From a virus (Duplodnaviria > Heunggongvirae > Uroviricota > Caudoviricetes), in IMG/VR virus record IMGVR_UViG_3300029983_000009, positions 64,001 through 128,000 of that record: 64,000 nucleotides of DNA. The stretch is one strand, 5' to 3'. Under the pieces are notes generated by a model. That model ran no database searches and was not told where the DNA came from. It saw nothing but the letters and a program-made list of their open reading frames with translations. Below are positions 3,638-63,116 of the stretch, one piece after another. Position 1 is the first letter of the stretch; each line of letters starts with the position of its first letter. The position numbers and the translations under genes were made by a program.

Positions 3638-3914
3638 ATTATATAGAGAAGATGTATTAATTGCATTAGATGATTGGGTTAAATATTCAATTAATGGTAT
3701 GTCTTATCATTTTAATAAAGGTTCTAAATATAAAATTTTATCTATATTTATTGACTGTGAATACCCATATTATATTGAATCAGAAAAAACTAACAGAAAA
3801 TATGAAGTTAAATTTTGTAGTGATTGCTCATTAGATGATGTTGAAATAACTCAGAACTTTGATTATATAACATATCAAAGAAAGAATAAATTGATAAAAT
3901 TGAATAAATTATAA
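3630..3914 (+). CDS. hypothetical protein, paralog 3 of triplet, RKxKL tail
   Basis: Paralogy with 3109 and 3380. Confidence 0.8.
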   Translation: MIKLYREDVLIALDDWVKYSINGMSYHFNKGSKYKILSIFIDCEYPYYIESEKTNRKYEVKFCSDCSLDDVEITQNFDYITYQRKNKLIKLNKL

Positions 3915-4208
3915 GTTGAATTTATTTATATTATTTTTATATTTAACAACATTCTTATCTTTATCAAATGCCAATATATCTTCTATATAAACATTCCATC
4001 CATTAGGATGATTTTCATCATAAAAATCAATCATGTATGCTGAGCCACTATAATAATTTATTATTTTATATGCATTATCAGTGAATATTTTTCTATAATG
4101 ATCACCTATCTCTGGATCACTAAAATTTAAATTTTTTGTGTTCAGAACAACATAATCGCCAATTCTTGGTTCATCATTATTATTTTCAAATTTTTTTAAG
4201 TATTTCAT
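3909..4208 (-). CDS. cassette protein, GDYV/SH3-like
   Basis: MKYLKKFE...IGDYVV...NKFNL; close paralog of 4205. Confidence 0.85.
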   Translation of the reverse strand: MKYLKKFENNNDEPRIGDYVVLNTKNLNFSDPEIGDHYRKIFTDNAYKIINYYSGSAYMIDFYDENHPNGWNVYIEDILAFDKDKNVVKYKNNINKFNL

Positions 4209-4543
4209 AAGTTAAATTTATTTGCTATATTTTTATATTTAACAACTTCTTCATCTTTATCATAAAATAGTATATCCTCATAATAGATATCCCATCCATC
4301 AGGATGAGTTTTATCATAAAAATTAATTGTATATACTGAAGATGGGAATTTACTTGTATATTTTGGAGAGTATTCACTATTATCACCAATTATTTTATAT
4401 ACATTATTAGTAAATATTCTTATATAATTTTTATTTTTATATGAGTTAGGATCACTAAATTTTAAATTTTTTACATTCAGTATAACATAATCACCAATTT
4501 CTGGTATTGTTTCTTTATTTTCAAATGTCTTTATATATTTCAT
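4205..4543 (-). CDS. cassette protein, GDYV/SH3-like
   Basis: MKYIKTFE...IGDYVI...NKFNL. Confidence 0.85.
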   Translation of the reverse strand: MKYIKTFENKETIPEIGDYVILNVKNLKFSDPNSYKNKNYIRIFTNNVYKIIGDNSEYSPKYTSKFPSSVYTINFYDKTHPDGWDIYYEDILFYDKDEEVVKYKNIANKFNL

Positions 4544-4866
4544 AAGTTAAATTTTTTTGCTGATAGTATTTTTTCCATTTCATTTTTATCTCCAAAATAT
4601 AAAATATCATTCATTTCAAATCTCAGCATATCATTATCAACACCGTCATAAAATAATTTTTTCAAATTTGAAGGAATTTTGTTATATTTTACAAAAACAC
4701 CTCCATTGTATATATCATAAATTTTACCAATTGAATTGTTTATATATTCATTTAATAATTCATCTAAATCAGAATGAAAATATTTCATCTTTTTAATATT
4801 CATAATAACATAATCACCAACAATTGGGTTATTTTCAGTAGCTTCAAATTGTTTCAAATGTTTCAT
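4540..4866 (-). CDS. cassette protein, GDYV/SH3-like
   Basis: MKHLKQFE...VGDYVI...KKFNL. Confidence 0.85.
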   Translation of the reverse strand: MKHLKQFEATENNPIVGDYVIMNIKKMKYFHSDLDELLNEYINNSIGKIYDIYNGGVFVKYNKIPSNLKKLFYDGVDNDMLRFEMNDILYFGDKNEMEKILSAKKFNL

Positions 4867-5156
4867 ATGTTATATTTTTTTGATTGTAATAATATTTCTA
4901 ATTCTTCTTTATTTTTTGAAATATGTTTTATCTCAGATACATCTAAATACCAATTATCATCAATATGGTTTTCTAATTTAAATTTAATGATATATAAAAT
5001 CTTCCCTATTTTTCTTTGTCTCGTTCCAATTATTTGAAATATATTATTATTAATTTTATCATTAATAACAGCATTAAGAGTTTCTACATTAGGAATTATA
5101 TAGTCACCTACGTCTGGAGTATTTTCTATATCTTCAAATTTTTTCAAGTACTTCAT
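4863..5156 (-). CDS. cassette protein, GDYV/SH3-like
   Basis: MKYLKKFE...VGDYII...KKYNI. Confidence 0.85.
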   Translation of the reverse strand: MKYLKKFEDIENTPDVGDYIIPNVETLNAVINDKINNNIFQIIGTRQRKIGKILYIIKFKLENHIDDNWYLDVSEIKHISKNKEELEILLQSKKYNI

Positions 5157-5464
5157 AAGTTAAATTTATTTGTTTCTGATTTAGTCTTACAATAATCTAT
5201 TTCTGATTTAGTCATTTTTCTTGAAATAAAATATATATTACCAGTTATTTTTTGCTTAGTGATTAATGTTTCAAATGTAATAACTATGTTATCTTTATCT
5301 TCATTATTATGATTCTCCAATAGAGTTATTTCTATTATTTTGACAAATAAATTATCTGGTATTTTTTCTACTCTCTCCACATAATCAGGAATTATTTTTA
5401 TTTTAACATAATCTCCTATATTAATATTTAGTTTGTTAATTTCAAATGATTTTATATACTTCAT
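5153..5464 (-). CDS. cassette protein, GDYV/SH3-like
   Basis: MKYIKSFE...IGDYVK...NKFNL. Confidence 0.85.
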   Translation of the reverse strand: MKYIKSFEINKLNINIGDYVKIKIIPDYVERVEKIPDNLFVKIIEITLLENHNNEDKDNIVITFETLITKQKITGNIYFISRKMTKSEIDYCKTKSETNKFNL

Positions 5465-5826
5465 AGGTTGAATTTATTTGAATTATTTTGAATTTCTATT
5501 TTATTTTTCAATTCATCTTTTGTTTTTGCTAATAAGTTTATATCTTCTAAATAAAATATTTGATTGTAGCCATAATTTTTATCATATTGAAAAAATTCTC
5601 TTACATTTTTTGGAATATCAAAACCATATATAACCTTTATTTTGTTGTTATTAAAAGTAGTATATATTTGTCCAGGACAATTAAGAAAAAAATCTTTTAA
5701 CAAATCAAGATATTTTTCATCGTAGTGATTTTTCAAATGATTAATATAATTTTTACTTACTATTGACACATAATCTCCTACTTCAGTCTCATTAGTATCA
5801 TTTTCAAATTTCTTTATATATTTCAT
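5461..5826 (-). CDS. cassette protein, GDYV/SH3-like
   Basis: MKYIKKFE...VGDYVS...NKFNL. Confidence 0.85.
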   Translation of the reverse strand: MKYIKKFENDTNETEVGDYVSIVSKNYINHLKNHYDEKYLDLLKDFFLNCPGQIYTTFNNNKIKVIYGFDIPKNVREFFQYDKNYGYNQIFYLEDINLLAKTKDELKNKIEIQNNSNKFNL

Positions 5827-6128
5827 ATGTTAAATTTGTTTGCATCAATTTCATAATCTTCAACAGTTATTTCTATTACAGTTTTATTTACATTTATTTT
5901 ATCTGACCAACTCCAACTGTTATAGATTAATGAGTGATTTAAATATATAAATTTAAAATGTGGGTTATTCCAATATTGAGAGTGCGTATTATTACTCCAA
6001 CTTGATATTTCATCTGTTGACATACCTATTTTAGTTAGTGCAATAAAATATACTTCTAACGGGTATGATGGAATTTTATATTGAATTTTTTTAATATTTA
6101 TCTTTTCAAATTTTTTTATATATTTCAT
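5823..6128 (-). CDS. cassette protein, YFIALTKIGM family
   Basis: MKYIKKFE...NKFNI; near-duplicate of 6125. Confidence 0.85.
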   Translation of the reverse strand: MKYIKKFEKINIKKIQYKIPSYPLEVYFIALTKIGMSTDEISSWSNNTHSQYWNNPHFKFIYLNHSLIYNSWSWSDKINVNKTVIEITVEDYEIDANKFNI

Positions 6129-6439
6129 ATGTTAAATTTCTTTGCATCAATTTCATAATCGTCAACAGTTATTTCTCTTACAGTTTGATTTACATTTATT
6201 CTATTTGACCAACTCCATTGATATTTTTTAGTATAATCATTGTATATGTGATCTAAATATATAAATTTAAAATTTGAATTATTCCAATATTGAGCTAATT
6301 TATTACTACTCCAATTTGATATTTCATCTTGTGACATACCAATTTTAGTTAGTGCAATAAAATATGCTTCTAACGGATATGCTGGAATTTTATAATGAAT
6401 TGTATTATTTATTTTTTCAAAATTTTTTATATATTTCAT
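6125..6439 (-). CDS. cassette protein, YFIALTKIGM family
   Basis: MKYIKNFE...KKFNI. Confidence 0.85.
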   Translation of the reverse strand: MKYIKNFEKINNTIHYKIPAYPLEAYFIALTKIGMSQDEISNWSSNKLAQYWNNSNFKFIYLDHIYNDYTKKYQWSWSNRINVNQTVREITVDDYEIDAKKFNI

Positions 6440-6771
6440 AGGTTAAATTTATTTGTATTAATAGAAATTTCTAATTCTGATTTATCTTTTGAATATCTAA
6501 CTATATCTGCTCCTTTCATAGTAAATGCAGATTCATTTTTATATCTCTTGAAATTATTTAAATTATCTGGAATATGATCATATTCAACTATATAATATGT
6601 AGCACCTGGTATTAATTTATAATCAATATCAATAAGTTTTCCTACCTTATTTTTAATGAAATCATTAAATTCTTTATATGTATTATTATATTTACCATCA
6701 TACCATTCACATATTACATAATCACCAATTTCTAATTTATTATTTATTTCAAATGTTTTTAAATATTTCAT
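6436..6771 (-). CDS. cassette protein, GDYV/SH3-like (array head)
   Basis: MKYLKTFE...IGDYVI...NKFNL; TAATATATA just upstream. Confidence 0.85.
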   Translation of the reverse strand: MKYLKTFEINNKLEIGDYVICEWYDGKYNNTYKEFNDFIKNKVGKLIDIDYKLIPGATYYIVEYDHIPDNLNNFKRYKNESAFTMKGADIVRYSKDKSELEISINTNKFNL

Positions 6772-6823
6772 ACTTTATATATTAAAAAAACATAATTAAA
6801 TTCTTCAATTGAAATAATTATAT

Positions 6824-6856: not shown

Positions 6857-7381
6857 ATGGAATTTAAAGTTGTTGATTATAAAATATATAAAATTCATAC
6901 TACACGTGAAAAATATCGTGAGGCCGCAATTAAATATGATTATGCATCAAAAAATAAAAATTGGGCTGATGATTTTGAAGGAATGATTGAAAAAAAATAT
7001 TCTGGTTACAGTGATCAAATAGATTCATTTAGTTCTAATAAATATCTAATGAAAATTGTATTTGTTGGTGATAAATTTGATATAAATAAAGACTTTTATG
7101 ATAATTGTAAACTTCCTTATTATAGTCACTTGCATAGTGATTTTAAAGAATATGGAGATAATCTAACAGATGAAATTATACAATCTCATTTTGAAGTTGT
7201 TAAACCAAATAAACCAACTACATATCCTAAATATAACAATGAAGTTAAATTCAATTATGATAAAAAAAATGTTATAATTGAGAAAATCTACTTTGATGGT
7301 TATGATTGGCAATATAAATTGAAAAATATTGGTCATGTTTATGATTATATTTCTGAAACTAATATCAATAAATATAATTGA
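6857..7381 (+). CDS. hypothetical protein
   Basis: 174-aa ORF. Confidence 0.8.
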   Translation: MEFKVVDYKIYKIHTTREKYREAAIKYDYASKNKNWADDFEGMIEKKYSGYSDQIDSFSSNKYLMKIVFVGDKFDINKDFYDNCKLPYYSHLHSDFKEYGDNLTDEIIQSHFEVVKPNKPTTYPKYNNEVKFNYDKKNVIIEKIYFDGYDWQYKLKNIGHVYDYISETNINKYN

Positions 7382-15503: not shown

Positions 15504-15866
15504 TTATAAATTGAATTTTTGAACATTCAACATTTGTTCTAAATAATCTTTATTTTTGTGATAAAATTTAACTTGAGAATATTTAAAATCTTTTGAATGT
15601 ATGAATTTATCTCCATCTTTATAATAGCCAAACCATGTTCCAATTTCTTTATCTTCTTTATATGTCATATCTTCATAAATTACTCTAATATCATTATGAT
15701 CATAATCCCATGTTTTAGAAACTACTTTACCTATATGATTATTTATATAATTTATAAATTCATTAACTTTAAATCCAGTGTAAATATCACTTGTTGCATT
15801 AATTAATACATAATCACCCTCTTTTGGTACGTCTTTATTATTTTCAAATGTTTTTATGTGCTTCAT
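15504..15866 (-). CDS. cassette protein, GDYV/SH3-like
   Basis: MKHIKTFE...EGDYVL...QKFNL. Confidence 0.85.
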   Translation of the reverse strand: MKHIKTFENNKDVPKEGDYVLINATSDIYTGFKVNEFINYINNHIGKVVSKTWDYDHNDIRVIYEDMTYKEDKEIGTWFGYYKDGDKFIHSKDFKYSQVKFYHKNKDYLEQMLNVQKFNL

Positions 15867-16354
15867 ATGTTGAATTTATTTGCGGTTTTTTTCATTAAAT
15901 ATTCTTTATATCTTTCAGGATAGGTTTCTATTATATGTTGTAATATTATAGGATTTGATGTATCAATTTTACTAAATATATCTTCACCCTTTAAATTTTC
16001 AATTTTCATATCAATTCCAGATTTCATTAATAAATCAATAATATTATCAATATTTTTTTTTAATATTTTATATGTATAATTACCATTATGAGTAATAAAA
16101 AATAAGCAAGTTTCATTAAATCTATTTGTTAAATTAACATCAGCATTATTTTCAATTAATAATTTAATTATACTGTAATTTAATTTTAATACTGCTTTAA
16201 TTAACGGTGTCCTACTTTTACTAGCATCAAAACAATTTACATCAGCACCATCTAATATCAATTCTCTTACTTTCTGTGTTGATGCTTTATTTTCTGAATA
16301 TTCCAATAATTCAGAATTTAATTCTTTCTGAGTATATGTAACTATATGTTTCAT
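15863..16354 (-). CDS. cassette protein, ankyrin repeats
   Basis: GADVN..RTPLIKAV, NADVNLTN; NKFNI. Confidence 0.85.
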   Translation of the reverse strand: MKHIVTYTQKELNSELLEYSENKASTQKVRELILDGADVNCFDASKSRTPLIKAVLKLNYSIIKLLIENNADVNLTNRFNETCLFFITHNGNYTYKILKKNIDNIIDLLMKSGIDMKIENLKGEDIFSKIDTSNPIILQHIIETYPERYKEYLMKKTANKFNI

Positions 16355-16869
16355 AAGTTAAATTTATTAGCTATTTTTTTAGTAGTATATAATTCACTTT
16401 TATCAGGATATTTATTCATGATTTTTTTTGATTCATCATTTGTTAAATATTCATGAAATTCATAATGATATATATCACGAATATTCCAATTTGCTCCTTC
16501 TTCAATTAATAATTCCATCACATCAAAATGTTTTCTTGATGCTGCCCATATCAATGCACTTCTACCATCATGATCAACTAAATCTATATTTGCTCCTGCA
16601 TCTATTAATTCTTTTGCTATTTGTTTATATATATGAATATAATTAGAACTTTTATTATTTATATGACACTCTGAAATCGAACACACGATTAAAGGTGTTC
16701 TATCAAGCCAATGAACATTTATATCATCAATAACACAATCATTATCAATAGCGTATCTCACCTTTTCTAATAATTTTATAGCATCAGAATCTGAATATAC
16801 TTCGCTATCTAATATATAATTCAAATCTAAAGATGCATCATATTTTTCATATTTTTTTAAGTATTTCAT
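16351..16869 (-). CDS. cassette protein, ankyrin repeats
   Basis: RTPLI, GANIDLVDHDGRSALIWAA; NKFNL. Confidence 0.85.
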   Translation of the reverse strand: MKYLKKYEKYDASLDLNYILDSEVYSDSDAIKLLEKVRYAIDNDCVIDDINVHWLDRTPLIVCSISECHINNKSSNYIHIYKQIAKELIDAGANIDLVDHDGRSALIWAASRKHFDVMELLIEEGANWNIRDIYHYEFHEYLTNDESKKIMNKYPDKSELYTTKKIANKFNL

Positions 16870-17249
16870 ATATTAAATTTATTTGCAGTGATTTCAGTTT
16901 CAATATCATTTTTATTATTAATATGAGTCCAATCTGTTAACTCATTTAAATAGTTTTTCATAATATTTGCATCTGATGTGTTAATATGGGATTTTAATGT
17001 ATCATAACGTATATAACCATAATAATGCATAGATTTACTCATTGTATACTCATTAGATTTAATAAATACTATAATATTGAATATGTATTTTTCATCTACT
17101 CTATAATATAATTCAAAATCAAATTTATAATTAGTTAGAGTTTTAATTTCATCATATAAATCAGTAAAATCGTTATTTGATACATATATTTTTTTTAAAT
17201 ATGGATCTATTGATATCTCTCTACTTTCAAACTTTTTTAAGTATTTCAT
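16866..17249 (-). CDS. cassette protein, unknown payload
   Basis: MKYLKKFE...NKFNI. Confidence 0.85.
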   Translation of the reverse strand: MKYLKKFESREISIDPYLKKIYVSNNDFTDLYDEIKTLTNYKFDFELYYRVDEKYIFNIIVFIKSNEYTMSKSMHYYGYIRYDTLKSHINTSDANIMKNYLNELTDWTHINNKNDIETEITANKFNI

Positions 17250-17605
17250 AAATTAAATTTATTTGTATCTGATAGATATGGTAATTCTTCTTTACTTGTT
17301 GGTGTCCAAACTTTATCTGATTTTACAATACTTCTAATATTATCAAGTGACATATTTGGATTTATTAGTTCTTGTGACTTTTTATTTATTTTGAACTCAA
17401 TTGAGATAAGAAAATTATATTCACTTACCGTATATGCATAAGCATCTATTTTAATGAATTTATTATGATAAGATATATCATAATCTATTCTATTTTTATC
17501 TAATATATCAAGATGGTTATAGATATTTTCAAGTTTAAAATATACTTTGAAAAATACAGTACAACCAACATTACTCATTTCATTAAATTGTATAAATGTT
17601 TTCAT
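17246..17605 (-). CDS. cassette protein, unknown payload
   Basis: MKTFIQFNE...NKFNL. Confidence 0.85.
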   Translation of the reverse strand: MKTFIQFNEMSNVGCTVFFKVYFKLENIYNHLDILDKNRIDYDISYHNKFIKIDAYAYTVSEYNFLISIEFKINKKSQELINPNMSLDNIRSIVKSDKVWTPTSKEELPYLSDTNKFNL

Positions 17606-17988
17606 ATATTAAATTTTTTAGAGCTTATTATTAAATTTACATCTTCTAAATTTATAATATTAGCATTTTTATTATTTTTTATTAATTCTATATTTTCTTC
17701 TTTTTTTAAATCTACATTAGTTATACTTGATATATTAAACATACCAATTAACTCAGAACTAATAATTTTATATTCATATTCATTACATGGAAATAAATAT
17801 AAGTAAAAAAACTCATCTCCTTTAGTGGTATTATTAAATAGAACATATTCAATGTTATATCTATTTGCTTGTTCAATGTCGTAATATATATCTGATATAT
17901 TATGTCTACCTGATTCATAATATCTTCTGAAATATATAGAAAAATATTTGTTTTTTATAGATTCATAGAATTGATTGAATGTTTTCAT
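17602..17988 (-). CDS. cassette protein, unknown payload
   Basis: MKTFNQFYES...KKFNI. Confidence 0.85.
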   Translation of the reverse strand: MKTFNQFYESIKNKYFSIYFRRYYESGRHNISDIYYDIEQANRYNIEYVLFNNTTKGDEFFYLYLFPCNEYEYKIISSELIGMFNISSITNVDLKKEENIELIKNNKNANIINLEDVNLIISSKKFNI

Positions 17989-18413
17989 ATATTGAATTTA
18001 TTTGTCATATTATTTAACTCCCATTGATAACAAGTAGTTTTTTTCAATTCTTCAAATTTATCTTGAGCAGTTTTTAATGATGATGATAAAAAAACTCTTT
18101 CAAATGTGTCACTGTTAATATTTAAATATTTTATTCCTATATTTATTCTTTCTGAGTTTTTCAAGTCTATTTCATCTATTTCGCATACATATGAAATTAT
18201 ATCAATTTTTAATCTTATTCCATCATCAAATTCTGTTGGCTCCAGAATTCTACACAAAGCTAAATAGTTATTCATTTTACCATATTTCCAATGATAAATA
18301 TTAGATTTGTATATCATATAAAAGCCTGGAATATAATTATTTATCATATCATTGAACTTATTCTTTGACTTCATTTTATCTTTATAATTCTCATAAATTT
18401 TTAAATGTTTCAT
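17985..18413 (-). CDS. cassette protein, unknown payload
   Basis: MKHLKIYE...NKFNI. Confidence 0.85.
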   Translation of the reverse strand: MKHLKIYENYKDKMKSKNKFNDMINNYIPGFYMIYKSNIYHWKYGKMNNYLALCRILEPTEFDDGIRLKIDIISYVCEIDEIDLKNSERINIGIKYLNINSDTFERVFLSSSLKTAQDKFEELKKTTCYQWELNNMTNKFNI

Positions 18414-18754
18414 AAATTATATTTGTTTGTAGCTTCTTTTTTTAATAAATATTCAGAATATTCATTTGGGTATTTTTTCTTGATTATTTCAAGTTGCTTG
18501 TCACTCAACAAATATGTAAAATCATATCCTTTGTTGTTTATAATATTCCAATCTGCTCCTGCTTTAATAAGAATCTCAACAATTGACATAAAATCATGAT
18601 TAGCAGCATAAAATATTGGTGTACGACCTTCCATATCCTGAATATTTATGTCTACATTAAACCTAATTAATTTTTTAACTAATTTTTCATCGTCATTTAT
18701 GATAGCCTTGAATAAATCTATTCCTTTAGATTCAAACGTTTTTATATATTTCAT
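18410..18754 (-). CDS. cassette protein, ankyrin repeats
   Basis: DINIQDMEGRTPIFYAA, GADWNI; NKYNL. Confidence 0.88.
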   Translation of the reverse strand: MKYIKTFESKGIDLFKAIINDDEKLVKKLIRFNVDINIQDMEGRTPIFYAANHDFMSIVEILIKAGADWNIINNKGYDFTYLLSDKQLEIIKKKYPNEYSEYLLKKEATNKYNL

Positions 18755-19155
18755 ATGTTAAATTTATTTGATTCTCTTTTTAAATAAAAATCTTCTTTTG
18801 TTATCTGACTCATTACATCATATATATTTCCTTTTATTTCAAAGTTGTATGTACGAGATTCAAATGTTATTAAATTTAATCCATAAATAGTTTCTAAATA
18901 TTCTTCAATAATATTAAACATCTCATTATATATACTAATGAATAAATCATCTCCTTCTATCTCAGTACTAATTGATAATTTTTTTGATCTTTCAGATTTT
19001 GAACTGTAGTAATAAAAATCATATTCTAAATTTGAACTTGAATGATTTGATTTCATATTATAATCTAATGATGTTATAAAACTATTTAGAAAAATAATGA
19101 ATATCTTATTATCTGATGAAGTTTCAATACTTTCATATGTTTTTATATATCTCAT
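18751..19155 (-). CDS. cassette protein, unknown payload (family with 58995, 61593, 62021)
   Basis: MRYIKTYE...ITKEDFYL..NKFNI. Confidence 0.85.
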   Translation of the reverse strand: MRYIKTYESIETSSDNKIFIIFLNSFITSLDYNMKSNHSSSNLEYDFYYYSSKSERSKKLSISTEIEGDDLFISIYNEMFNIIEEYLETIYGLNLITFESRTYNFEIKGNIYDVMSQITKEDFYLKRESNKFNI

Positions 19156-19159: not shown

Positions 19160-20803
19160 TTACTTGGTATTTAATTTTTCAATAGCTTCATCAACAATAC
19201 TATCTGTTATACCTAATTCATGAGTAGTTTTAACAATATGTTTTTTACTGAACACATCATATAAGTCATGCTTATTATCGTCAATAATTATAAAATTGCT
19301 AACAAATTTGTTGTTCTTCAACCAATCTTTTATATCAGAACCACGTTTTTTTGATTTGTCATTTGGAACAACATCATAAATTTTATATTTAAACCCTGCA
19401 TCTTTCATCATTTTTTCAATCTCACTTAAAGGTTTATCATCTCTATATGAAGATGATAATACAACTTTTGCATCTGTTTTTTCTATTATTTTGTTTAAAT
19501 TGCTCATTGCAGTTTTACTCCATTTTTCTGGATCATTAAAAAATTTATGATAATCAGTATCAGATGTTTTATCATAAGGAATAAGAGGTCCATCAATATC
19601 TTCAAATACAACTTTTATTCCGCCTTCTTTAGTATTATCTTTATCTTTTTCAATAGTTTTTATTATACTGTTAAATGATTCTAATCTTGAATAATTCTCA
19701 TCGTCAGCATCTATTATTATCCAAGGTGATTCTTTTGTATTTGTTTTTTTGAAAATGTCATTTATGTATTTAGTGAACTCATCCCACTTATCTAACGTTT
19801 GCTCATCATTCTTACTAAATTTCCAATATTTCAATGGATTGGATTTTCTTAATTCAAATCTCATTTTTTGAACATCCTGAGATATAGAGAACCATATTTT
19901 TATAAGTATAATATCATCATCAATTAATTTATCCTCAAAGTTATTAACTTCTTTCATGAATTTATTGTATTTATCATCTGTTGAATATTTCATCACTGGT
20001 TCAACGTAACCTCTTGTATACCAAGATCTATCAAAGAAAACAATTTCACCATTTTTTGGTAAAACTTTTTCATATCTTTCAAACCAATTATCACTTTCTT
20101 CTTCTGACGGAATACCAAATGTTTGTACTCTATAATGTTTTGGATCAAGAAACCTAGTAATATTTCTAATTGCAGATCCTTTTCCTGCAGCATCTCTACC
20201 TTCAAATATTATTAATACCTTTTTGTTATTGTATGTAATCCATTCCTGTAATTTTAATAACTCTATTTGATATTTATATTTAGTTTTTTGATATTCATCA
20301 AGAGGAACTTTATTTATTTTTATATCTATCTTATTATAAGGCTCATATGATTTGTCAGTCTCTATTTTGTCATAAAAAAATTCATATGTACTGTCTATAT
20401 ATCGATCTACGTTATCAGCATATGCTTTAAAAACACTATCTACATTCTTTATATTAATATCAAATGAATTGTTAATTGAATATATTTTTAATATATCATT
20501 CGCAAATTTATTTAATCTCATGTGCCTAATTATATCGTTATCAACATTATTTAAAAAATCTTTGAATAAATCCTTAAATTTAATAATTGTTGTTTTATTA
20601 TAATTGTTCAATAGACTTTTCTTATATGATTCTAAATCTTCTTTGATTTGATTTTTATAGAAATCTAAAGTATATTTTTTGTCTATTGATTGTTTTAAAT
20701 TTATAATCAAACTTTTAAAAGAATGTATGAGGTTTTCTAACTCATCTTTACTTCGATGAAAGAAAGCCTCATTTAATTTATTATAATCATCATATCTTAA
20801 CAT
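19160..20803 (-). CDS. ppk2: polyphosphate kinase 2 with N-terminal extension and C-terminal HAD-like domain
   Basis: FEGRDAAGKGS, FDRSWY.R..VEPVM, KIWFSIS, WKFS..D, PWIII.ADD; C-terminal DIDGPL...LSSSYR...IIIDD. Confidence 0.92.
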   Translation of the reverse strand: MLRYDDYNKLNEAFFHRSKDELENLIHSFKSLIINLKQSIDKKYTLDFYKNQIKEDLESYKKSLLNNYNKTTIIKFKDLFKDFLNNVDNDIIRHMRLNKFANDILKIYSINNSFDINIKNVDSVFKAYADNVDRYIDSTYEFFYDKIETDKSYEPYNKIDIKINKVPLDEYQKTKYKYQIELLKLQEWITYNNKKVLIIFEGRDAAGKGSAIRNITRFLDPKHYRVQTFGIPSEEESDNWFERYEKVLPKNGEIVFFDRSWYTRGYVEPVMKYSTDDKYNKFMKEVNNFEDKLIDDDIILIKIWFSISQDVQKMRFELRKSNPLKYWKFSKNDEQTLDKWDEFTKYINDIFKKTNTKESPWIIIDADDENYSRLESFNSIIKTIEKDKDNTKEGGIKVVFEDIDGPLIPYDKTSDTDYHKFFNDPEKWSKTAMSNLNKIIEKTDAKVVLSSSYRDDKPLSEIEKMMKDAGFKYKIYDVVPNDKSKKRGSDIKDWLKNNKFVSNFIIIDDNKHDLYDVFSKKHIVKTTHELGITDSIVDEAIEKLNTK

Positions 20804-21564: not shown

Positions 21565-21864
21565 ATGAAATATATAAAAACATTTGAATTCGTTGTTAAA
21601 GATATTGAAATACCTATTGGATATTACGTTATACCTGTTCTTAAAGGTATAAATTATGATATTCAATATAAAACAAAAATAAGTAATAATATTTTTCAAA
21701 TAATAAACAAAAGCAAAACTCAATATAAAATTGATTTTAAAGATTATTATCATGAAGATGGTTTTTGGATTGATAAAAAAGATGTATTTAAATATTCATC
21801 TGTTAAAAAAATATTAGAAGACAAATTGGAATTAATTAAGCAAACAAATAAATTCAATGTATGA
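21565..21864 (+). CDS. cassette protein (array 3), SH3-like
   Basis: MKYIKTFE...IGYYVI...NKFNV. Confidence 0.85.
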   Translation: MKYIKTFEFVVKDIEIPIGYYVIPVLKGINYDIQYKTKISNNIFQIINKSKTQYKIDFKDYYHEDGFWIDKKDVFKYSSVKKILEDKLELIKQTNKFNV

Positions 21865-22238
21865 TAACTAAATTTAAACTATATGAAACAATAAAAAAAT
21901 CGCCAAAAACTAAAAAAATATTAGTTAAAGATTATAAAATAGGAGATTACGTTATTTGTGAAAGTGAATCATTTCCTATGTTAAGTGATTTTACATCATC
22001 TAATGTTGGACAGATAATAGATATTCTAAATATAAGAGAACGTTTTGATAATTATGTTATTCAATATGATTATATTCCAGATAATTTAAAACATTCATTT
22101 CAAATACAATGTCACGATAATGATCCAAATAAAAAATATGAAAATTCAGTAACTGTAACCAGGACAGAAATAAAATTTCTATCTGATAAAAAATCAGATT
22201 TGGAATATTTATCAAATTCAAAAAAATTCAATATATGA
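21861..22238 (+). CDS. cassette protein (array 3), GDYV/SH3-like
   Basis: MITKFKLYE...IGDYVI...KKFNI. Confidence 0.85.
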   Translation: MITKFKLYETIKKSPKTKKILVKDYKIGDYVICESESFPMLSDFTSSNVGQIIDILNIRERFDNYVIQYDYIPDNLKHSFQIQCHDNDPNKKYENSVTVTRTEIKFLSDKKSDLEYLSNSKKFNI

Positions 22239-22582
22239 TAACAAAATTTAAAATATTTGAAATAAAAAATTATACTCCTGAATATTTAAATGATTTAAAA
22301 ATAGGAGATAAAATTATATATGTAGGTCACCAGTCTAACTATTTAAAAGAAGGTGATATATTTATTATAAATTCTATTGTGAAGTATTCAGAAAATAATG
22401 GACATAGATATTATTTAGATGTTGATACAATAGGAAAAGGTGATTTAATTTCAATTAAAACTGAAAATGGATATGTTATTAATGATAAAGATGACGGATC
22501 TGATAAACTTTTTTTTCCAAACAAATTTACTACTCCTGAGATTTATAATATAACTAATGATTCTAAAAAATTCAATTTATAA
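22235..22582 (+). CDS. cassette protein (array 3), SH3-like
   Basis: MITKFKIFE...IGDKII...KKFNL. Confidence 0.85.
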   Translation: MITKFKIFEIKNYTPEYLNDLKIGDKIIYVGHQSNYLKEGDIFIINSIVKYSENNGHRYYLDVDTIGKGDLISIKTENGYVINDKDDGSDKLFFPNKFTTPEIYNITNDSKKFNL

Positions 22583-43809: not shown

Positions 43810-43904
43810 ACTAAAAAATTAATTTCAACTATATATAAAATCTATAAGGTATTTTTTTAACTTGATTAAAATAAATTAATATTAATTTATTAATATATAA
43901 ATAT

Positions 43905-44429: not shown

Positions 44430-44923
44430 AACATATAAAGAATTTTGAGCAGAATTCTAATCAACCAGATTTAAATGATCAATTAATTGCTGCTTGCTTA
44501 ACTAATGACTTTGAAAAAGTTAAAATCTTAGTTAATAAAGGCGCTGATGTGAATTTTTTTAATAAAGATGGATATACTCCTTTAATATATTCTATTAATA
44601 AAGAATCTGATATAAAAATTGTTAATTTTTTGATTAATAACGGAGCTGATGTAAATTTTCAAGATAATACTACTCAAGGTTGGACTCCATTATTATTATC
44701 AGGGTTCTATTCTTCCATTATTGAATTGAATGATGTTGAATATTATAATATTTTGAAATTGTTAATAGACTCAAATGCAAATTGGAATATTAAAGGCAGA
44801 ACAGTTAAAATTACATTTTTTGATTATTTAAAACCAGAAATTAAGAAAAAAATAATGAGAGATTATCCAGATAAATATAAAGATTATTTATTGTGTCAAA
44901 CTGCTGATAAATTTAACTTATAA
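44426..44923 (+). CDS. cassette protein (array 6), ankyrin repeats
   Basis: GADVNFFNKDGYTPLIYS, GADVNFQD..GWTPLL; DKFNL. Confidence 0.9.
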   Translation: MKHIKNFEQNSNQPDLNDQLIAACLTNDFEKVKILVNKGADVNFFNKDGYTPLIYSINKESDIKIVNFLINNGADVNFQDNTTQGWTPLLLSGFYSSIIELNDVEYYNILKLLIDSNANWNIKGRTVKITFFDYLKPEIKKKIMRDYPDKYKDYLLCQTADKFNL

Positions 44924-46028: not shown

Positions 46029-46322
46029 TTATTTTTTTAATGTACCATCAATATTTATATATTTAAGAGTATAATTTTTTACTTCTTCAAATGGTAATCC
46101 AAGTAATTGTTCAGCATCATATTCTTTTTTATTATCATATTTTATGACAGGTTCTCCGTTAAAATTGAAAATATCACTACAAAGTATAACACCATATTCA
46201 TTATATCTTTTAACTATCTTACCAACATGTTCTGACGCAATTCCTTTGTATAATGGTTGTCCATTATTTTTATGAATAGCTTTCTCTTCTGATGTCCATT
46301 GTTTTTTATTATCAAATTTCAT
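46029..46322 (-). CDS. hypothetical protein
   Basis: 97-aa ORF. Confidence 0.75.
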   Translation of the reverse strand: MKFDNKKQWTSEEKAIHKNNGQPLYKGIASEHVGKIVKRYNEYGVILCSDIFNFNGEPVIKYDNKKEYDAEQLLGLPFEEVKNYTLKYINIDGTLKK

Positions 46323-46675
46323 AGGATAGTTATTTTATTCAATTCATTCAATTTAAACTTTCTTTCTAACTTTATAGGAATTTCATACTTAAATTCATAT
46401 CCTATACTTCTCAAATAGTCAATTGCTATTAATGGACAAATTTTTTCATAATTCATTCCACCCCAATTTCCATCATTTCTAGATAATGAAATAGTACCAT
46501 TATAATCTATTGCAATATATGAATCATAATTGCTATTGTTTATTGTTGATGTAGTTTCAATTTGAACTGCTAATCCATGAGTCCAACTACCAGCCATATA
46601 ACTTAGATATGGCTCACCATATATTTCACATATTATTTTAACTTCTTCTTCAGTGATATCTTTTAAATCTTTCAT
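46319..46675 (-). CDS. hypothetical protein, RKxKL tail
   Basis: Ends LERKFKLNELNKITIL. Confidence 0.75.
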   Translation of the reverse strand: MKDLKDITEEEVKIICEIYGEPYLSYMAGSWTHGLAVQIETTSTINNSNYDSYIAIDYNGTISLSRNDGNWGGMNYEKICPLIAIDYLRSIGYEFKYEIPIKLERKFKLNELNKITIL

Positions 46676-56948: not shown

Positions 56949-57506
56949 ATGATTAAAAAATTTAAAGAATTCGAAAACTATGATTTAAGAGGAGAATATG
57001 GTGATATTTTTGAACCTATGAAAGAAGAAGATATGCCTCAAGATGTACCAGGATTTGAAAGCGGTACAATAGATCCAGAGGATGATGAAGTATATCACAA
57101 TTTACATTCTGACTTCAATGAACTTAGTGAAAAAGAACTATATGAGAAATTCAAAATAGTAACAAAGGAAAGAAATTTCAAAGAAACAAAAAATGAAATA
57201 AAAATAAATATATCAAAATTGTATCATGATTTTATTATGTCAATATATAATCCTAATAAGCATTATTCAAAATTTCTAAGAGAAGAAATTATAGGCAAAT
57301 ATATATCAGATGGAGTAATTGATTTTATGACTGATATAAAATATTATGGTATAATAAAAGGATTAAACTTTCAATATGTTAATGAAAGTGCTCTTGTTTC
57401 TGCAGAATTAGTTGGAATAGATGAGTTAAAATACGAAAATTCAATGTGTAATAATATTATTACTATTGATAAACTAAAGTCTAATGCAAATAAATTTAAT
57501 TTATGA
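56949..57506 (+). CDS. cassette protein (array 8), acidic N-terminal part
   Basis: MIKKFKEFE...NKFNL. Confidence 0.85.
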   Translation: MIKKFKEFENYDLRGEYGDIFEPMKEEDMPQDVPGFESGTIDPEDDEVYHNLHSDFNELSEKELYEKFKIVTKERNFKETKNEIKINISKLYHDFIMSIYNPNKHYSKFLREEIIGKYISDGVIDFMTDIKYYGIIKGLNFQYVNESALVSAELVGIDELKYENSMCNNIITIDKLKSNANKFNL

Positions 57507-57796
57507 AACATATCAAGAAATTTGAAATAAATGACATATCAGATGATGAGATTCAAAAATATAGAAAAAATGATTATGTTAAATTAAAATCATCAGGATT
57601 TGTTGATAAATTACCAAGATATGCTAAAATAACATCTATTGATCCACCTACACTTAATAGCTGTATTTATTATTTTTGTGTGACTCCTGATAATAATAAG
57701 CTTTGGATGCCTGATGATAGAATTGAAAGAGAATTAGATAAATATGAAATAGAAAAATATGAATTTGATTTAATAGCAAATAAATTTAATTTATGA
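57503..57796 (+). CDS. cassette protein (array 8), SH3-like
   Basis: MKHIKKFE...YRKNDYVKL...NKFNL. Confidence 0.85.
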   Translation: MKHIKKFEINDISDDEIQKYRKNDYVKLKSSGFVDKLPRYAKITSIDPPTLNSCIYYFCVTPDNNKLWMPDDRIERELDKYEIEKYEFDLIANKFNL

Positions 57797-58146: not shown

Positions 58147-58806
58147 TTATAAATTAAATTTGTTGATAGATTTTTTTATCTTTAAATAATCTTCAACTTC
58201 TTTTTTACTTTTAGAATATAATTTAATATCTTTAATTCTAAATTCATGTTTTCCTAAATCTTTAATAATAGGATTTGTATCATTATAAAACTGATTTATT
58301 TCTCCTATCATTTCTTTAGGTATATCTCTATATTCAATTACATATGCATTTTTCTCGTTTTGGCTAGTAACTCTTCCAATGTTATTATTTATATACTCAT
58401 CAAAAATATTGTCATCATCACTATATTTATTACTTTTTATTTCGCACAATACATAATCTCCTATCATTGGTTCATCTGGAATCTTCCATTCAGATTTCAA
58501 TGTAAACATATATGCTTTTTTCATAGTTATTATTTCATCAGTTTTAATATCTTGAACATCTACATAAGCATTATATAATAAATTAGTTGTTACATTCCTA
58601 TAACCTCTTCCACTCCAATATATTTGTATAACTTTATATTCTCTACCATATTTAATTTCTTTTTCATTACCATATTCTAATTCACCATCCTGAGTTATTC
58701 TACCTGTATAGTCACGATATGCGTCGAATTTTGTAGAACAAATCACAATATCATTTAATGAATAAACAATATAATCATTACTTTCAAATTTTTTTATATA
58801 TTTCAT
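58147..58806 (-). CDS. cassette protein with two SH3-like payloads
   Basis: YSLNDIVIC domain followed by EPMIGDYVLC domain; NKFNL. Confidence 0.85.
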   Translation of the reverse strand: MKYIKKFESNDYIVYSLNDIVICSTKFDAYRDYTGRITQDGELEYGNEKEIKYGREYKVIQIYWSGRGYRNVTTNLLYNAYVDVQDIKTDEIITMKKAYMFTLKSEWKIPDEPMIGDYVLCEIKSNKYSDDDNIFDEYINNNIGRVTSQNEKNAYVIEYRDIPKEMIGEINQFYNDTNPIIKDLGKHEFRIKDIKLYSKSKKEVEDYLKIKKSINKFNL

Positions 58807-58809: not shown

Positions 58810-58998
58810 TTAAAATTTTGTTTGAAATGATACCATATCTTTAGTTTTATTAGACATTACATCAACTGGTTCAAGTGTTCCTCCACCATTTTTCTTTTTC
58901 TTTTTCTTTTTCTCCTCATTTTTATATGATTTGTGTTGTGGTTTATATGGCACATATTCAACTCCAACGTATTCTTCAAAAGTTTTTAAGTTTTTCAT
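58810..58998 (-). CDS. small basic protein with CTS-like N-terminus
   Basis: MKNLKTFEE...EEKKKKKKKNGGG. Confidence 0.75.
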   Translation of the reverse strand: MKNLKTFEEYVGVEYVPYKPQHKSYKNEEKKKKKKKNGGGTLEPVDVMSNKTKDMVSFQTKF

Positions 58999-59447
58999 AT
59001 ATTAAATTTATTTGTATTGTATTTTAATTCAAAATCATTTTTTGATATTTTTTTAATTAATATATTAATATCTTCATTTATAATATATCTTGAAAATTTT
59101 ATGAAATCGTCAATTATTTTCAATCCTTCTATTTCTTTAAAATAATCAATAACAAAATTTGACAACGAATCATAGTCATCAATTATCTTAATACTTATAA
59201 TATAACTAGTTGTAGAATAATCTATATTTTGAGTTAACTCTATTTCAAATAAATCTTGAAATCTTGAGCAACCATATTCATCAGTTATTAAATTTATTGA
59301 TCTACAACGTAATGTATATTCTTTAATTTTATTATATTCATTATATATAGTTGAACATCTTACTCCAATATCGCTGAACATTTTTGATAAATGTTCTATT
59401 AAATTTTTAAGTTCAGTTATATTTTCATACAACTTTAAATATTTCAT
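58995..59447 (-). CDS. cassette protein, unknown payload
   Basis: MKYLKLYE...NKFNI. Confidence 0.85.
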   Translation of the reverse strand: MKYLKLYENITELKNLIEHLSKMFSDIGVRCSTIYNEYNKIKEYTLRCRSINLITDEYGCSRFQDLFEIELTQNIDYSTTSYIISIKIIDDYDSLSNFVIDYFKEIEGLKIIDDFIKFSRYIINEDINILIKKISKNDFELKYNTNKFNI

Positions 59448-59746
59448 ATATTGAATTTTTTTGCATTATATTCTGTTTCAGATATAAAAACAGATGGATG
59501 CCAATTTACTGTTTCTTTTCCAGTTTCTACATTAACTACATTAACTTTATTTAAATTAATTTCTTTTACAATATATTTTTCTCCTTTTGTTATTAAATCA
59601 AGTAACATAGGATTGAATTTTTCATTATCTTTATTATGCATAGATGGTAAGCCTTTAACAGTTTCTACACAAATAACAGTATCTCCTACTTTATATTTGT
59701 ATTTTTTATCTATATCAATTTCCTCATATGATTTTAAAAATTTCAT
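59444..59746 (-). CDS. cassette protein, SH3-like
   Basis: Start corrected to MKFLKSYEE at 59746; YKVGDTVIC; KKFNI. Confidence 0.85.
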   Translation of the reverse strand: MKFLKSYEEIDIDKKYKYKVGDTVICVETVKGLPSMHNKDNEKFNPMLLDLITKGEKYIVKEINLNKVNVVNVETGKETVNWHPSVFISETEYNAKKFNI

Positions 59747-59747
59747 A

Positions 59748-60146
59748 TTATATGTTGAATTTTTTAGTTCTAATATAAAATAAAATATTTTCATCTTCAA
59801 TATTTACATTATAAAAATTTATTGTGACTCCTTTTACGTTTTGATCATTAGATGCTTTTAAATATCCATAACTAAAAACATAGTTACCTATTCTTAATGC
59901 AAAATCATCACCTTTATTAATATAAAATTCATCCTGTACAATTTTTTCACGCATTTCTATATTATCAGATTTTTTATAATAATGTTCATTTTGAGTTTCT
60001 GAAATAATAAATCCAATTGCATCAGAATTATCTTTCAAATCAATTAATTTTTGAATTGATTTGAACATACCAAAAAAATCACAGAATCCAAAAAGATCAA
60101 TTGATATTACTTGTTCTGTTGATTCATATTTTTTTAAATATTTCAT
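59748..60146 (-). CDS. cassette protein, unknown payload
   Basis: MKYLKKYE...KKFNI. Confidence 0.85.
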   Translation of the reverse strand: MKYLKKYESTEQVISIDLFGFCDFFGMFKSIQKLIDLKDNSDAIGFIISETQNEHYYKKSDNIEMREKIVQDEFYINKGDDFALRIGNYVFSYGYLKASNDQNVKGVTINFYNVNIEDENILFYIRTKKFNI

Positions 60147-60515
60147 TTATATATTGTATTTGTTTGATTTTGATTTCATTTTATAATCTTCTATGTGAGG
60201 AATTACTATATGACTAGCTATATATGTTTCACTAAATGAAATATCACCTACTTGTCCATGATCACCTTTTGTAACTTCATCAATTTCCTCAATTGTTATT
60301 TCATTATTTTCTAACGCTTTTAATAATGATTCACCATTTTTTATATATTTACTTGATAATAATTCTCTACCACCGAATTGTTCTATCCAGTTAAATGCTG
60401 TTTGAAATTCATTATGTCCTAATGAATCATCCAAATTAGAATTAGGATGATTTTCACTATCAGCCCAATCTTTTATTCTGGTACTATAATCAGTAAATTC
60501 TTTTAGATATTTCAT
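60147..60515 (-). CDS. cassette protein, unknown payload
   Basis: MKYLKEF...NKYNI. Confidence 0.85.
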   Translation of the reverse strand: MKYLKEFTDYSTRIKDWADSENHPNSNLDDSLGHNEFQTAFNWIEQFGGRELLSSKYIKNGESLLKALENNEITIEEIDEVTKGDHGQVGDISFSETYIASHIVIPHIEDYKMKSKSNKYNI

Positions 60516-60530
60516 CTTAATTTTTTGTTT

Positions 60531-60857
60531 TTATATATTAAATTTATTTGTTATATTATATAATTTATATTTTTTTATTTCTTCTTTTGTTGCTAATCTG
60601 ATATTCTCTGGATAAAAATCATGAATATCATTTTTAAATACCCATTTTAAATCTGAAGGAATATTTGTATATTTTACATTATATGCAGTATATGGTTTAT
60701 CATTATATCCAAAGTTTTTGCTTATGCCAATAATTTGACCTATGTTATTTTCCAAGAAATTCTTAATATCAGGCTTAAATGGAACATATTCTGATATTAC
60801 ATATTGTCCTACTTTAAAAACTTTTTTTCTACTTTCAAATGTTTTAATGTATTTCAT
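60531..60857 (-). CDS. cassette protein, GDYV/SH3-like
   Basis: MKYIKTFE...VGQYVI...NNIGQI...NKFNI. Confidence 0.85.
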   Translation of the reverse strand: MKYIKTFESRKKVFKVGQYVISEYVPFKPDIKNFLENNIGQIIGISKNFGYNDKPYTAYNVKYTNIPSDLKWVFKNDIHDFYPENIRLATKEEIKKYKLYNITNKFNI

Positions 60858-61174
60858 ATATTAAATTTATTTGCCTTTAGTTTCATATTAAAAAATTCAA
60901 TCTCTTCTGGAGTCATTAGTCTTTCTATCTCATCAAATTTAATGAATAATCCTTCATCATCTTCTCCAGGGGTATATGTTTTAACAATATAAGGGTATGG
61001 AAGATCATCATAATATTCTCTATTGGTGACAATTCCAAATTTGTTAGGTAATTCATCTATTTTATTATCTATTTTATTATTTTTTGTGAATTTTTCTATA
61101 TCTAATACAACATAATCTCCATCATTATATTTTAATGGCTCAAATTGTTTTTCAAATGTTTTTATATACTTCAT
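60854..61174 (-). CDS. cassette protein, GDYV/SH3-like
   Basis: MKYIKTFE...DGDYVVLD...NKFNI. Confidence 0.85.
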   Translation of the reverse strand: MKYIKTFEKQFEPLKYNDGDYVVLDIEKFTKNNKIDNKIDELPNKFGIVTNREYYDDLPYPYIVKTYTPGEDDEGLFIKFDEIERLMTPEEIEFFNMKLKANKFNI

Positions 61175-61596
61175 ACATTAAATTTATTTGTATTATCAAG
61201 AAATATTTTTTCAGAATCATCAAGAACTAATTTATTGATATCTATTTTTAGCTCACCTTTGAAATCATAAATATTTGCGTTTAACTGATTTTTATATATT
61301 CTGAATTTATCATCTTCATTATGTAATATCGAATAAGAAAATCCAAACAAACTAAAATATAAATATACTCCTATAATATCATCATTAATATCATCATTAA
61401 TATCTTTATCTCTAAATATTCTATTTATTGTTCTATTTAATTCTATCTCATGATCATTACTAGGAAAATATTTCTTAAATTTTGAAATAACTGACATTAT
61501 ATTAGAAACATCTCCATAAATTATCCAATATGATCCTGCTATAATTTCAATGTCATCAGAATTAGTTATTTTTTCGTATTTCTTTATATATTTCAT
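61171..61596 (-). CDS. cassette protein, unknown payload
   Basis: MKYIKKYE...NKFNV. Confidence 0.85.
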   Translation of the reverse strand: MKYIKKYEKITNSDDIEIIAGSYWIIYGDVSNIMSVISKFKKYFPSNDHEIELNRTINRIFRDKDINDDINDDIIGVYLYFSLFGFSYSILHNEDDKFRIYKNQLNANIYDFKGELKIDINKLVLDDSEKIFLDNTNKFNV

Positions 61597-62021
61597 ATGT
61601 TAAATTTATTTACATCAGTAATCAAATTATATTTAGAGTCAAAATCTTCATTTGATATTTGATTAATAATATCATCAATATTACCAATTATATCATATAC
61701 TATTTTAGTTGTACTTTCAAAATTATACTTTAATCCTTTTATAGTTTTGAAATATTGTAACATATATTTATAGAAAATTTCATTTTTAAATATATGAATA
61801 GATAAGTGCTTACCAAGAATTGTATCAACTGATATATCAAATAATGCTTCACCAGAAGTAGAAAATTCAGTTTCATATTTTCTATTGTCATAATAATTTG
61901 AATATTCTATACCATAATAAGAAAAAATCTTTGTTAAATGACTAATTAATTTTTTAACATCGGTTACATCACTATCATCAAAAAAATCAGTTATTTTTTC
62001 AAATGTTTTTATATGCTTCAT
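61593..62021 (-). CDS. cassette protein, unknown payload
   Basis: MKHIKTFE...YFKTIKGL...NKFNI. Confidence 0.85.
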   Translation of the reverse strand: MKHIKTFEKITDFFDDSDVTDVKKLISHLTKIFSYYGIEYSNYYDNRKYETEFSTSGEALFDISVDTILGKHLSIHIFKNEIFYKYMLQYFKTIKGLKYNFESTTKIVYDIIGNIDDIINQISNEDFDSKYNLITDVNKFNI

Positions 62022-62458
62022 TATACATTATATTTTTTTGCACTAGCAAACATAGTCAATTTATCTTTATCTATTTGATCAATAACGTCATTAATATCTC
62101 CTGTAATATAAAATTCATATTCATCTAATATTTGTTTATTAAATCTAATTCCTTTTATTGTTTTTAAATACTCAGGAATTTCTGATACCATAATATTATT
62201 ACTATTATTAAAAGAATCTAATACTATATATTCATCATCTCCTGTCATTATAGAAAATAATATTTTATCTGTATTCTTAACATAAAATGAAAACATGACA
62301 TCATCTCCTTCACTCATATCAGAACACTCGTATCCAAATTGAGTTATAAAATTTCTAATGAATTTTGCAAATATAGGTAATTTATTTTTAAATTCTTCTA
62401 GATCTTCTTCAGTATAATATTCTTCTTCGAATATTTTATAATCTTTAATGTATTTCAT
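62021..62458 (-). CDS. cassette protein, unknown payload
   Basis: MKYIKDYKIFEE...YLKTIKGI...KKYNV. Confidence 0.85.
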   Translation of the reverse strand: MKYIKDYKIFEEEYYTEEDLEEFKNKLPIFAKFIRNFITQFGYECSDMSEGDDVMFSFYVKNTDKILFSIMTGDDEYIVLDSFNNSNNIMVSEIPEYLKTIKGIRFNKQILDEYEFYITGDINDVIDQIDKDKLTMFASAKKYNV

Positions 62459-62787
62459 ATATTATATTTATTTGTCATCAATACTTTTTCTAAATCTTCT
62501 TTATTTTTAGACCAATATTTTATATCTTCAATATTTAATGATATCGCTTCTTCATCATATATCTTAAATTTATAAAAATCTAACTCTTTTGGTATATTAT
62601 CATATATTATTGTATATGATAAATCATCTGCATATAAAGGTTTAAATATATTATATAATTTACCAATTCTATTTTTAGTGAATTCATTTAAATCAGTAAG
62701 AAAATCATTTGATTCTGCTATCACATAATCACCAACTTCTGGATCATTCACATTCATTTTTTCATATATTCTAAATTTTGTAATCAT
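62455..62787 (-). CDS. cassette protein, GDYV/SH3-like
   Basis: MITKFRIYE...VGDYVI...NKYNI. Confidence 0.85.
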   Translation of the reverse strand: MITKFRIYEKMNVNDPEVGDYVIAESNDFLTDLNEFTKNRIGKLYNIFKPLYADDLSYTIIYDNIPKELDFYKFKIYDEEAISLNIEDIKYWSKNKEDLEKVLMTNKYNI

Positions 62788-63116
62788 AAGTTAAATTTAT
62801 TTGCTTGTAAAATAGTTTCTAATTCTTCTTTGTTTTTAGTCCATTTTATCAAATCCTCTTTTTTGAATCTAAAAGATGTATCATTATTCATAGACTTATA
62901 TAATTTTAACTCATCTGGTATATTATTATATTTTACTAAAAAAGATGTTTCATCGTATTTATCAGTTTCAATTTTAATTAATTCTCCTATATTATTTGTA
63001 GCAAAAATATTAGCAGGATGTTCATCCTCAGCATGTTTCCATTTTGCAAATATGTAATCACCAACTTCTGGTTCAATTGAATTTTCATATTCCTCATACA
63101 ATTTTAAATGTGTCAC
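62784..63116 (-). CDS. cassette protein, GDYV/SH3-like
   Basis: MTHLKLYEE...VGDYIF...NKFNL. Confidence 0.85.
   Translation of the reverse strand: MTHLKLYEEYENSIEPEVGDYIFAKWKHAEDEHPANIFATNNIGELIKIETDKYDETSFLVKYNNIPDELKLYKSMNNDTSFRFKKEDLIKWTKNKEELETILQANKFNL

Follow-up and report, generated by a model that had tools for sequence, protein, structure and literature searches.

The internal proteins of phage T4 (IPI, IPII and IPIII) are small and variable, have unrelated bodies and share an N-terminal leader of about 10 residues that ends in Glu (PMC9958956, PMC12373910). The leader puts these proteins in the core of the prohead; once injected, they counter the defences of the host (PMC9958956, PMC12373910). 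How T4-type phages position proteins in the prohead core has been called "mysterious" (PMC9958956), and the choice of cargo for ejection is less understood still. Here we analyze a window of 64,000 nucleotides (bases 64,001–128,000) of a 168 kb viral contig with 23% GC from a peat metagenome (IMG/VR record IMGVR_UViG_3300029983_000009); all feature coordinates are window positions. Many genes of the window begin with a head resembling the capsid-targeting sequence (CTS) of T4 and end with the tail K[FY]N[LIV], which is the last part of a longer C-terminal tag. No C-terminus is shared by the T4 internal proteins, whereas here at least 80 genes per quarter genome add such a tag to the leader.

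A common tail on unrelated proteins

In the window, 65 open reading frames (ORFs) terminate in K[FY]N[LIV]-stop, and about 80 do so in the whole contig, where chance predicts 0.04 and 0.1, respectively. The same four residues inside ORFs are found at the chance level (11 seen, 13.7 expected). The window tails are KFNL (32), KFNI (23), KYNI (4), KFNV (3), KYNL (2) and KYNV (1), followed by TGA in 44 cases and by TAA in 21. The head and the tail are coupled: the tail is present in 68 of 73 head genes (Fisher 5e-58), and nearly all tail genes outside these 68 carry variant heads.

Counting back from the last residue (−1), position −3 is aromatic and F swaps with Y only, as a sequence-only reading of this DNA had noted. 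That reading had also placed an acidic and hydrophobic helix before the tail, and this is borne out. Positions −14, −13 and −11 are acidic, positions −12 and −10 are hydrophobic in ~80% of tails compared with 32–41% in controls, and −6 is A, S or T in 82%. In the AlphaFold model of the product of 41299–41625, a barrel is followed by a C-terminal helix (residues 94–106 of 108), which ends at the aromatic residue. N or K at −5, taken as fixed in that reading, is a preference (74%) and not a rule. The mean net charge of the last 14 residues is +0.7. The consensus tag of about 13 residues runs acid-acid-hydrophobic-acid-hydrophobic-x-x-x-small-x-K-[FY]-[NG]-hydrophobic.

The bodies that carry the tag (median 122 residues) are unrelated and comprise ankyrin repeats, leucine-rich repeats, a KOW/Tudor-like barrel family and proteins of unknown type. 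A Foldseek search with the barrel body returns only weak Tudor/chromo/KOW-like matches (E 0.05 and above), the Atlas matches of a tagged protein are unnamed viral clusters, and two tagged proteins searched against annotated phages have no relatives there. In the two-unit fusion P0007, the inner tail is decayed or lost and the terminal one is retained. In P0131, the tail is lengthened to end in W-N-I, which recreates the aromatic-N-hydrophobic pattern. Two further genes appear to carry tail remnants: a short head gene (58810–58998, minus strand), which ends in T-K-F here and in relatives, and a gene without a head (6857–7381, plus strand), which ends in K-Y-N.

Selection acts on the tail peptide

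The tail residues are under purifying selection as a peptide. Homologue pairs (86, of which 78 are tailed) were picked by body similarity with the ends masked. In the last four codons of these pairs, the synonymous (pS) and nonsynonymous (pN) differences are 0.47 and 0.065, a ratio of 0.14, compared with 0.72, 0.52 and 0.39 in the three blocks upstream (20 codons). Selection at the protein level had been proposed in the sequence-only reading, and the codon comparison suggested there bears it out. In the 78 tailed pairs, the tail Asn has undergone 28 silent changes and one residue change, whereas Asn in the 18 residues upstream of the tail has not survived in 116 of 173 cases (Fisher 2e-26). 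Exchanges at −3 stay within F/Y and those at −1 within I/L/M/V. The synonymous variation of TTT with TTC and of AAT with AAC, reported earlier for the window, is real.

Many tails overlap the next start codon in an ATGA. Here, the last base of the Asn codon lies at −3 and that of the aromatic codon at −6 relative to the next start, and neither is ever A. A is the commonest base at −3 and −6 of starts genome-wide; in Flavobacterium reporters A is best at these positions, and C outperforms U at −3 (PMC6847099). In the coupled tails, A would encode Lys in one codon and Leu or a stop in the other. This accounts for its absence and supports selection on the peptide.

The tail is also kept away from such overlaps. 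The 28 pairs without ATGA overlap show the same pattern as the other tailed pairs. All seven TAA-terminated tails listed earlier as free of the overlap were found in place, but five lie only 1–15 nt from the next start and are weak controls. Sound controls are the array-end tails at 3909, 22582, 27636, 39814, 44923, 49512 and 58147, in which the motif is kept before terminator-like hairpins or convergent genes. Of the copies of tail DNA in the contig, 70 are in frame and run into a stop and 5 lie elsewhere; the tail DNA is present at array ends and never upstream of array-first genes.

These controls bear on a role in cis only, in which the helix cap protects the protein end from exopeptidases, or the final residues adjust how translation terminates and restarts, with no external partner. 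An Asn or Gly cap followed by a hydrophobic residue is a known helix-ending motif. The tag has this form, and two thirds of the window tails overlap the next start. However, many sequences could cap a helix, yet a single one is fixed on unrelated folds; it is kept at array ends that have no downstream start, and other genes of the genome do without it. An exclusively cis role is therefore quite improbable.

Codon bias and a putative late promoter overlie the tail

In this lineage, the codon biases of the tail indicate that its synonymous sites are not neutral. Lys is AAA in 80 of 80 cases (background 0.91, p = 8e-4). AAC makes up 42% of the Asn codons compared with a background of 11% (p = 2e-13). 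The terminal Ile is ATA in 13 of 14 TAA genes, and NTA is almost always the final codon, also where TAA follows. Tuning of the downstream start is insufficient to explain the AAC excess, since AAC is used in 24 of 72 tails without a nearby start. Avoidance of hairpins or promoters was also considered and was not shown to be the cause.

Upstream of array-first head genes, no word is more strongly enriched than TTAATATATA. TATATA precedes 70% of these genes compared with 14% of the genes that carry a different, basic C-terminal tag (described below). We read this word as a putative late promoter, and its in-frame translation is F-N-I-stop. The tail at 51463–51477 (minus strand), which lies 3 nt from the next start, is an example: its F-N-I-stop codons coincide with the putative late promoter TTTAATATATA. 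Some tails might act as promoters as well, and the promoter may have shaped the version of the tail found in this lineage. TATATA is intact in 33 of 343 tails, so the promoter cannot be what maintains the tail.

The putative promoter TT[TA]ATATATA is found at 6772–6790, 31679–31700, 43885–43904 and 56930–56948, often just 4–7 nt before the ATG, a spacing that suggests mRNAs with little or no leader. Position −1 is T in 17 of 19 array-first genes. The site at 6772–6790 (minus strand) precedes an array-first gene, contains no in-frame tail and serves as a control. Tail-like DNA at 40601–40615 (minus strand) lies between genes, does not end an ORF and is likewise read as a late promoter.

The peptide might, on the other hand, be a by-product of a DNA or RNA element such as the late promoter, a translation-initiation region or a recombination junction. 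The identity of the F-N-I-stop codons with the putative promoter and the AAA, AAC and NTA biases speak for such an origin. Against it, besides the rarity of intact TATATA, the degeneracy of the motif tracks the genetic code, and silent sites turn over as fast in the tail as in the body. Conservation as DNA in any frame together with presence before array-first genes was not found, and the overlap is limited to F-N-I-TAA tails. Furthermore, the codon bias is gone in a 501 kb relative (G011), where AAC is used 6 times in 54 (background 0.11), Ile and Val use all their codons and K-Y-N is kept in 54 genes; these 54 were chosen by the motif itself, and Lys is still AAA in 53. In another relative (LR756500), the variant of the tag has other DNA. 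As the sole cause, a nucleic acid element is largely refuted, and we consider it very improbable. The same bases would in this lineage also serve ATGA coupling, sometimes the late promoter, and junction homology, and these added roles would explain the codon bias and not the conservation of residues. Contigs of four peat runs cover the stretch with joints at the junctions; these are short-sided and of low stringency and were not used.

Relatives carry variants of the tag

CheckV puts the completeness of the contig at 24%, which implies a genome near 700 kb. The portal, gp21 protease and gp23 are absent from this fragment and are present in a tag-bearing relative, G007, which has a T4-like portal, a gp21-type protease with a long fused extension, and gp23. 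The extension comprises about 600 residues (L265:4886–7234), and small separate genes in two megaphages (L278:30435–30686 and L379:14760–15383) match residues 331–409 of the gp21-type protease. The capsid protein of G007 is 57% identical to that of a 735 kb genome, 47–51% identical to those of three genomes of 634, 636 and 642 kb, and only 35% identical to that of LR756500. The 735, 634, 642 and 636 kb genomes belong to the Mahaphage clade, for which Bacteroidetes hosts have been predicted (PMC7162821). Judging from these relatives, the contig probably derives from a phage of the Mahaphage group with a host among the Bacteroidota. Its start regions are A-rich, G-poor and devoid of a Shine-Dalgarno signal, which is compatible with such a host.

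Dozens of contigs, drawn from many metagenomes, carry the tag, and their F/Y and I/L preferences are genome-specific. In one body family (2,597 representatives of clusters at 50% identity), 149 of the top 150 representatives have an aromatic-N-hydrophobic ending. K at −4 varies to N, Q, S or R, and N at −2 changes, very rarely, to G or S. In G011 the tag is lengthened by one to three residues, and relatives overall carry it 1–6 variable residues before the end. LR756500 has 14 head-bearing genes with N-A-D-D-F-G-[FLM] endings, the D-F-G-F variant (e.g. L296:11706–16000), in which the tag is not at the very end throughout. The G011 and LR756500 ends align to the tag by position: a hydrophobic residue nine before the aromatic one, Ala three before it, the aromatic residue, N or G, and a hydrophobic residue. 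These extended and D-F-G-F ends show that a free carboxylate directly after the hydrophobic residue is not generally required.

The tagged genes of G000, G011 and LR756500 nearly all start with the head or a head variant. Only 1 of 103 tagged genes of G000 and G011 has a homologue in other lineages compared with 9 of 46 untagged head genes, and the head genes of the structural region are mostly tagless. No swap of tags on homologous bodies between lineages was detected. Both this lineage-specificity and the DNA overlay had been overlooked in the sequence-only reading.

C-terminal degrons and PDZ ligands (ssrA and the MuA tail for ClpX; DegS, Prc) end in basic and hydrophobic residues, and an aromatic-x-hydrophobic end fits the class II PDZ pattern. 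As a degron or unfoldase handle, the tag would time the clearance of cargo that is left unpackaged or has been injected, by delivering it to a phage or host protease of the Clp or tail-specific type. In this lineage the tag is strictly terminal, basic and then hydrophobic, and three tag-bearing genomes (G006, G008 and G009) have genes for both ClpP and an AAA+ protein of the ClpB/C type (L192:9776–12310; L283, L284). But ClpP and the AAA+ protein are also present in the tagless LR745206 and LR756504, the tag differs from such ligands in its invariant Asn/Gly at −2, no PDZ domain is encoded in 11 records (mostly fragments), and a degron has no need for a link to the head. Receptors that read the carboxylate poorly tolerate a C-terminal extension, whereas the tags of relatives are followed by 1–6 variable residues. 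A terminal recognition signal, as the sequence-only reading had it, would fit as a docking site, and its protease or degron version is weakened to the point of being unlikely.

Two other C-terminal motifs were seen in these genomes. LR756501 (735 kb) has 109 copies of DP[YF]GE[ED], usually as DPYGEExW (control 0; e.g. L275:29642–36309 and L276:12409–21896), located at the C-terminus or just past a head in unrelated and often headless proteins, membrane proteins included. The motif is absent from eight other genomes tested and seems to be a further address motif that has not been described, in the largest of the PMC7162821 genomes. DPYGEE genes have no body homology to the tagged genes and are mostly headless, so that equivalence to the tag is only a suggestion. 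The basic tag, R-[KDE]-x-K-[LI]-x-x-[LI], ends about 85 genes of the contig, which are headless and lack the TATATA promoter (in the window, 3109–3914, 32123–32753, 38623–39098, 46319–46675 and 56402–56906). It is common in LR745206 and LR756504 and almost missing from LR756500 and LR756501.

A proposed docking helix for a shared partner

We propose that the tail serves as a docking helix: a single phage partner common to the tagged proteins would bind it and hold back, order or feed virion cargo for ejection. We assign this reading a probability of about 0.45. The tail would end a portable helix of ~13 residues on fast-turnover accessory proteins of a T4-like megaphage of ~700 kb. By analogy with T4, the head would direct these proteins into the prohead core and would then be cut after Glu by the gp21-type protease. 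Once the head is removed, the tail would be the sole feature common to the mature cargoes and would most likely bind one common phage partner; the scaffold, the inner capsid face, the portal and an AAA+ chaperone are candidates. Interchange of N and G is expected at the left-handed C-cap residue of a helix. The near-invariant Asn (replaced by Gly or, rarely, Ser) could be such a cap, with −10, −6 and −3 forming one binding face.

Several points weigh against this proposal. No binding partner was found, and a presence/absence screen of genes against the tag gave ~22 candidates and no unique tracker. In T4 the CTS by itself packages foreign proteins (PMC9958956), and the leader is the only feature shared by Ip1–3 (PMC12373910). 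Heads occur without any shared tail in LR745206, LR756502, LR756504, G015 and many smaller phages, which indicates that packaging as such does not depend on the tail, and packaging of the tagged proteins is itself predicted from their heads. In addition, many of the 86 homologue pairs come from one peat clade and their loci were fetched via junction patterns, so their counts are not fully independent. In G007, a MoxR-like AAA ATPase and a VWA/metallopeptidase protein (L267:8202–11117) both have head-like N-termini and may constitute a packaged chaperone pair.

The reader of the tag might instead be a phage major vault protein (MVP), which would sort cargo into a vault-like cage. MVP is encoded in G000, G011, LR756500 and LR756501, each of which has a terminal motif, is missing from the motif-less LR745206, LR756502 and LR756504, and adjoins tagged genes in L185 and L227. 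However, G015 has MVP and 62 tagless head genes (83% of G015 read), the ~22 screen candidates share the pattern of MVP, the three negatives could represent one joint loss, and MVP has no head. Vault loading is accordingly a highly unlikely explanation. A co-fold of the genome's own MVP (residues 1–640) with a tagged protein gave no answer (score 0.00) and is evidence neither way.

Alternatively, the partner could be found in the host, where the tag would after injection bring diverse anti-defence proteins to one structure such as a membrane complex, the ribosome or RNA polymerase. The tag would outlast cleavage of the head, lineage variants would suit different hosts, and T4 internal proteins work in the host right after injection (PMC12373910). 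However, the host group is itself deduced from relatives, and at least 80 proteins would compete for one host site. Docking to a host hub is improbable on these grounds.

Gene arrays of the window

On the minus strand, the first array (3909–6771) consists of nine head and tail genes with mostly KOW/Tudor-like barrel bodies, and there is no gene downstream of its last tail (3909). The array at 15504–19155 (minus) also has nine such genes, with ankyrin-repeat bodies at 15863–16354 and 18410–18754. Adjacent to it lies a gene (19160–20803, minus) whose product joins a PPK2 polyphosphate kinase to a HAD domain, has a head-like N-terminus and no tail and represents a control class. Three head and tail genes at 21565–22582 (plus) end at a tail that is faced by a convergent gene. 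A segment of ~3.5 kb at 24100–27600 is without long ORFs in an otherwise dense genome, and ARAGORN detects no tRNA in it. The next array (27636–31678, minus) has 10 head and tail genes, ankyrin and leucine-rich-repeat bodies included, and holds the TAA-terminated tails at 27950 and 28332.

A lone head and tail gene (39814–40323, minus) is followed by a terminator-like hairpin, and its tail has no coupled start codon. The modelled gene belongs to an array of nine head and tail genes at 40629–43809 (minus). Two head and tail genes with ankyrin repeats (43905–44923, plus) again end at a tail faced by a convergent gene, and two tail genes at 49512–50121 (minus) have a terminator-like hairpin after the last one. 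The largest of the six head and tail genes at 50593–54521 (minus) is 51463–52842 (459 residues). The remaining ones comprise two head and tail genes at 56949–57796 (plus), a head and tail gene with a free tail followed by a terminator-like hairpin (58147–58806, minus), and an array of 11 head and tail genes at 58995–63116 (minus), whose first gene (62784–63116) has a GTG start.

Comparison with known systems

Beyond the individual tag, Mahaphage-group megaphages might sort hundreds of accessory proteins by terminal address peptides. These would comprise the N-terminal leader, lineage-specific helix-cap tags with an [FY]-[NG] core (KFNI, KYNIL, DFGF and perhaps DPYGEE) and the separate basic tag on headless genes, each recognized by a receptor of its own that co-evolves with it, for example the phage vault or a chaperone for ejection. 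We advance this wider scheme as a doubtful but possible one; if true, it would represent a type of protein sorting so far undescribed in viruses. The tag points to a large set of candidate anti-defence proteins that the biggest known phages would inject. It might also serve as a portable handle for loading and, as a second tag on thousands of proteins, offers a ready bait for its reader. New here are the test at the codon level, the extension of the tag to a wider family that has an N/G cap and includes non-terminal forms, the overlap with the promoter and the DPYGEE motif. A literature search on the motifs found no paper describing the tag.

Ankyrin and leucine-rich-repeat bodies occur among the cargoes of the Legionella Dot/Icm system, as they do among the tagged genes. 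There, one terminal signal, the DotM-bound E-block, serves many unrelated cargoes and has acids upstream of the end, but DotM requires a net acidic tail (PMC5802825), whereas the phage tag is near neutral (+0.7) and has invariant residues. The C-terminal targeting peptides of family 1 encapsulins are likewise short, are carried by unrelated cargoes and belong to an HK97-fold shell (PMC8346489). They have no sequence likeness to the phage tag, which is helical, is paired with an N-terminal leader and is known here from sequence. The Mahaphage clade (PMC7162821) is linked to the tag-bearing phages by the kinship of the G007 capsid protein, but LR745206, LR756501, LR756502 and LR756504 are without this tag, and a word search of PMC7162821 and PMC11165621 found no such motif. 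The tag is thus real, selected as a peptide and undescribed, and it resembles other terminal address peptides in mode and none of them in sequence.

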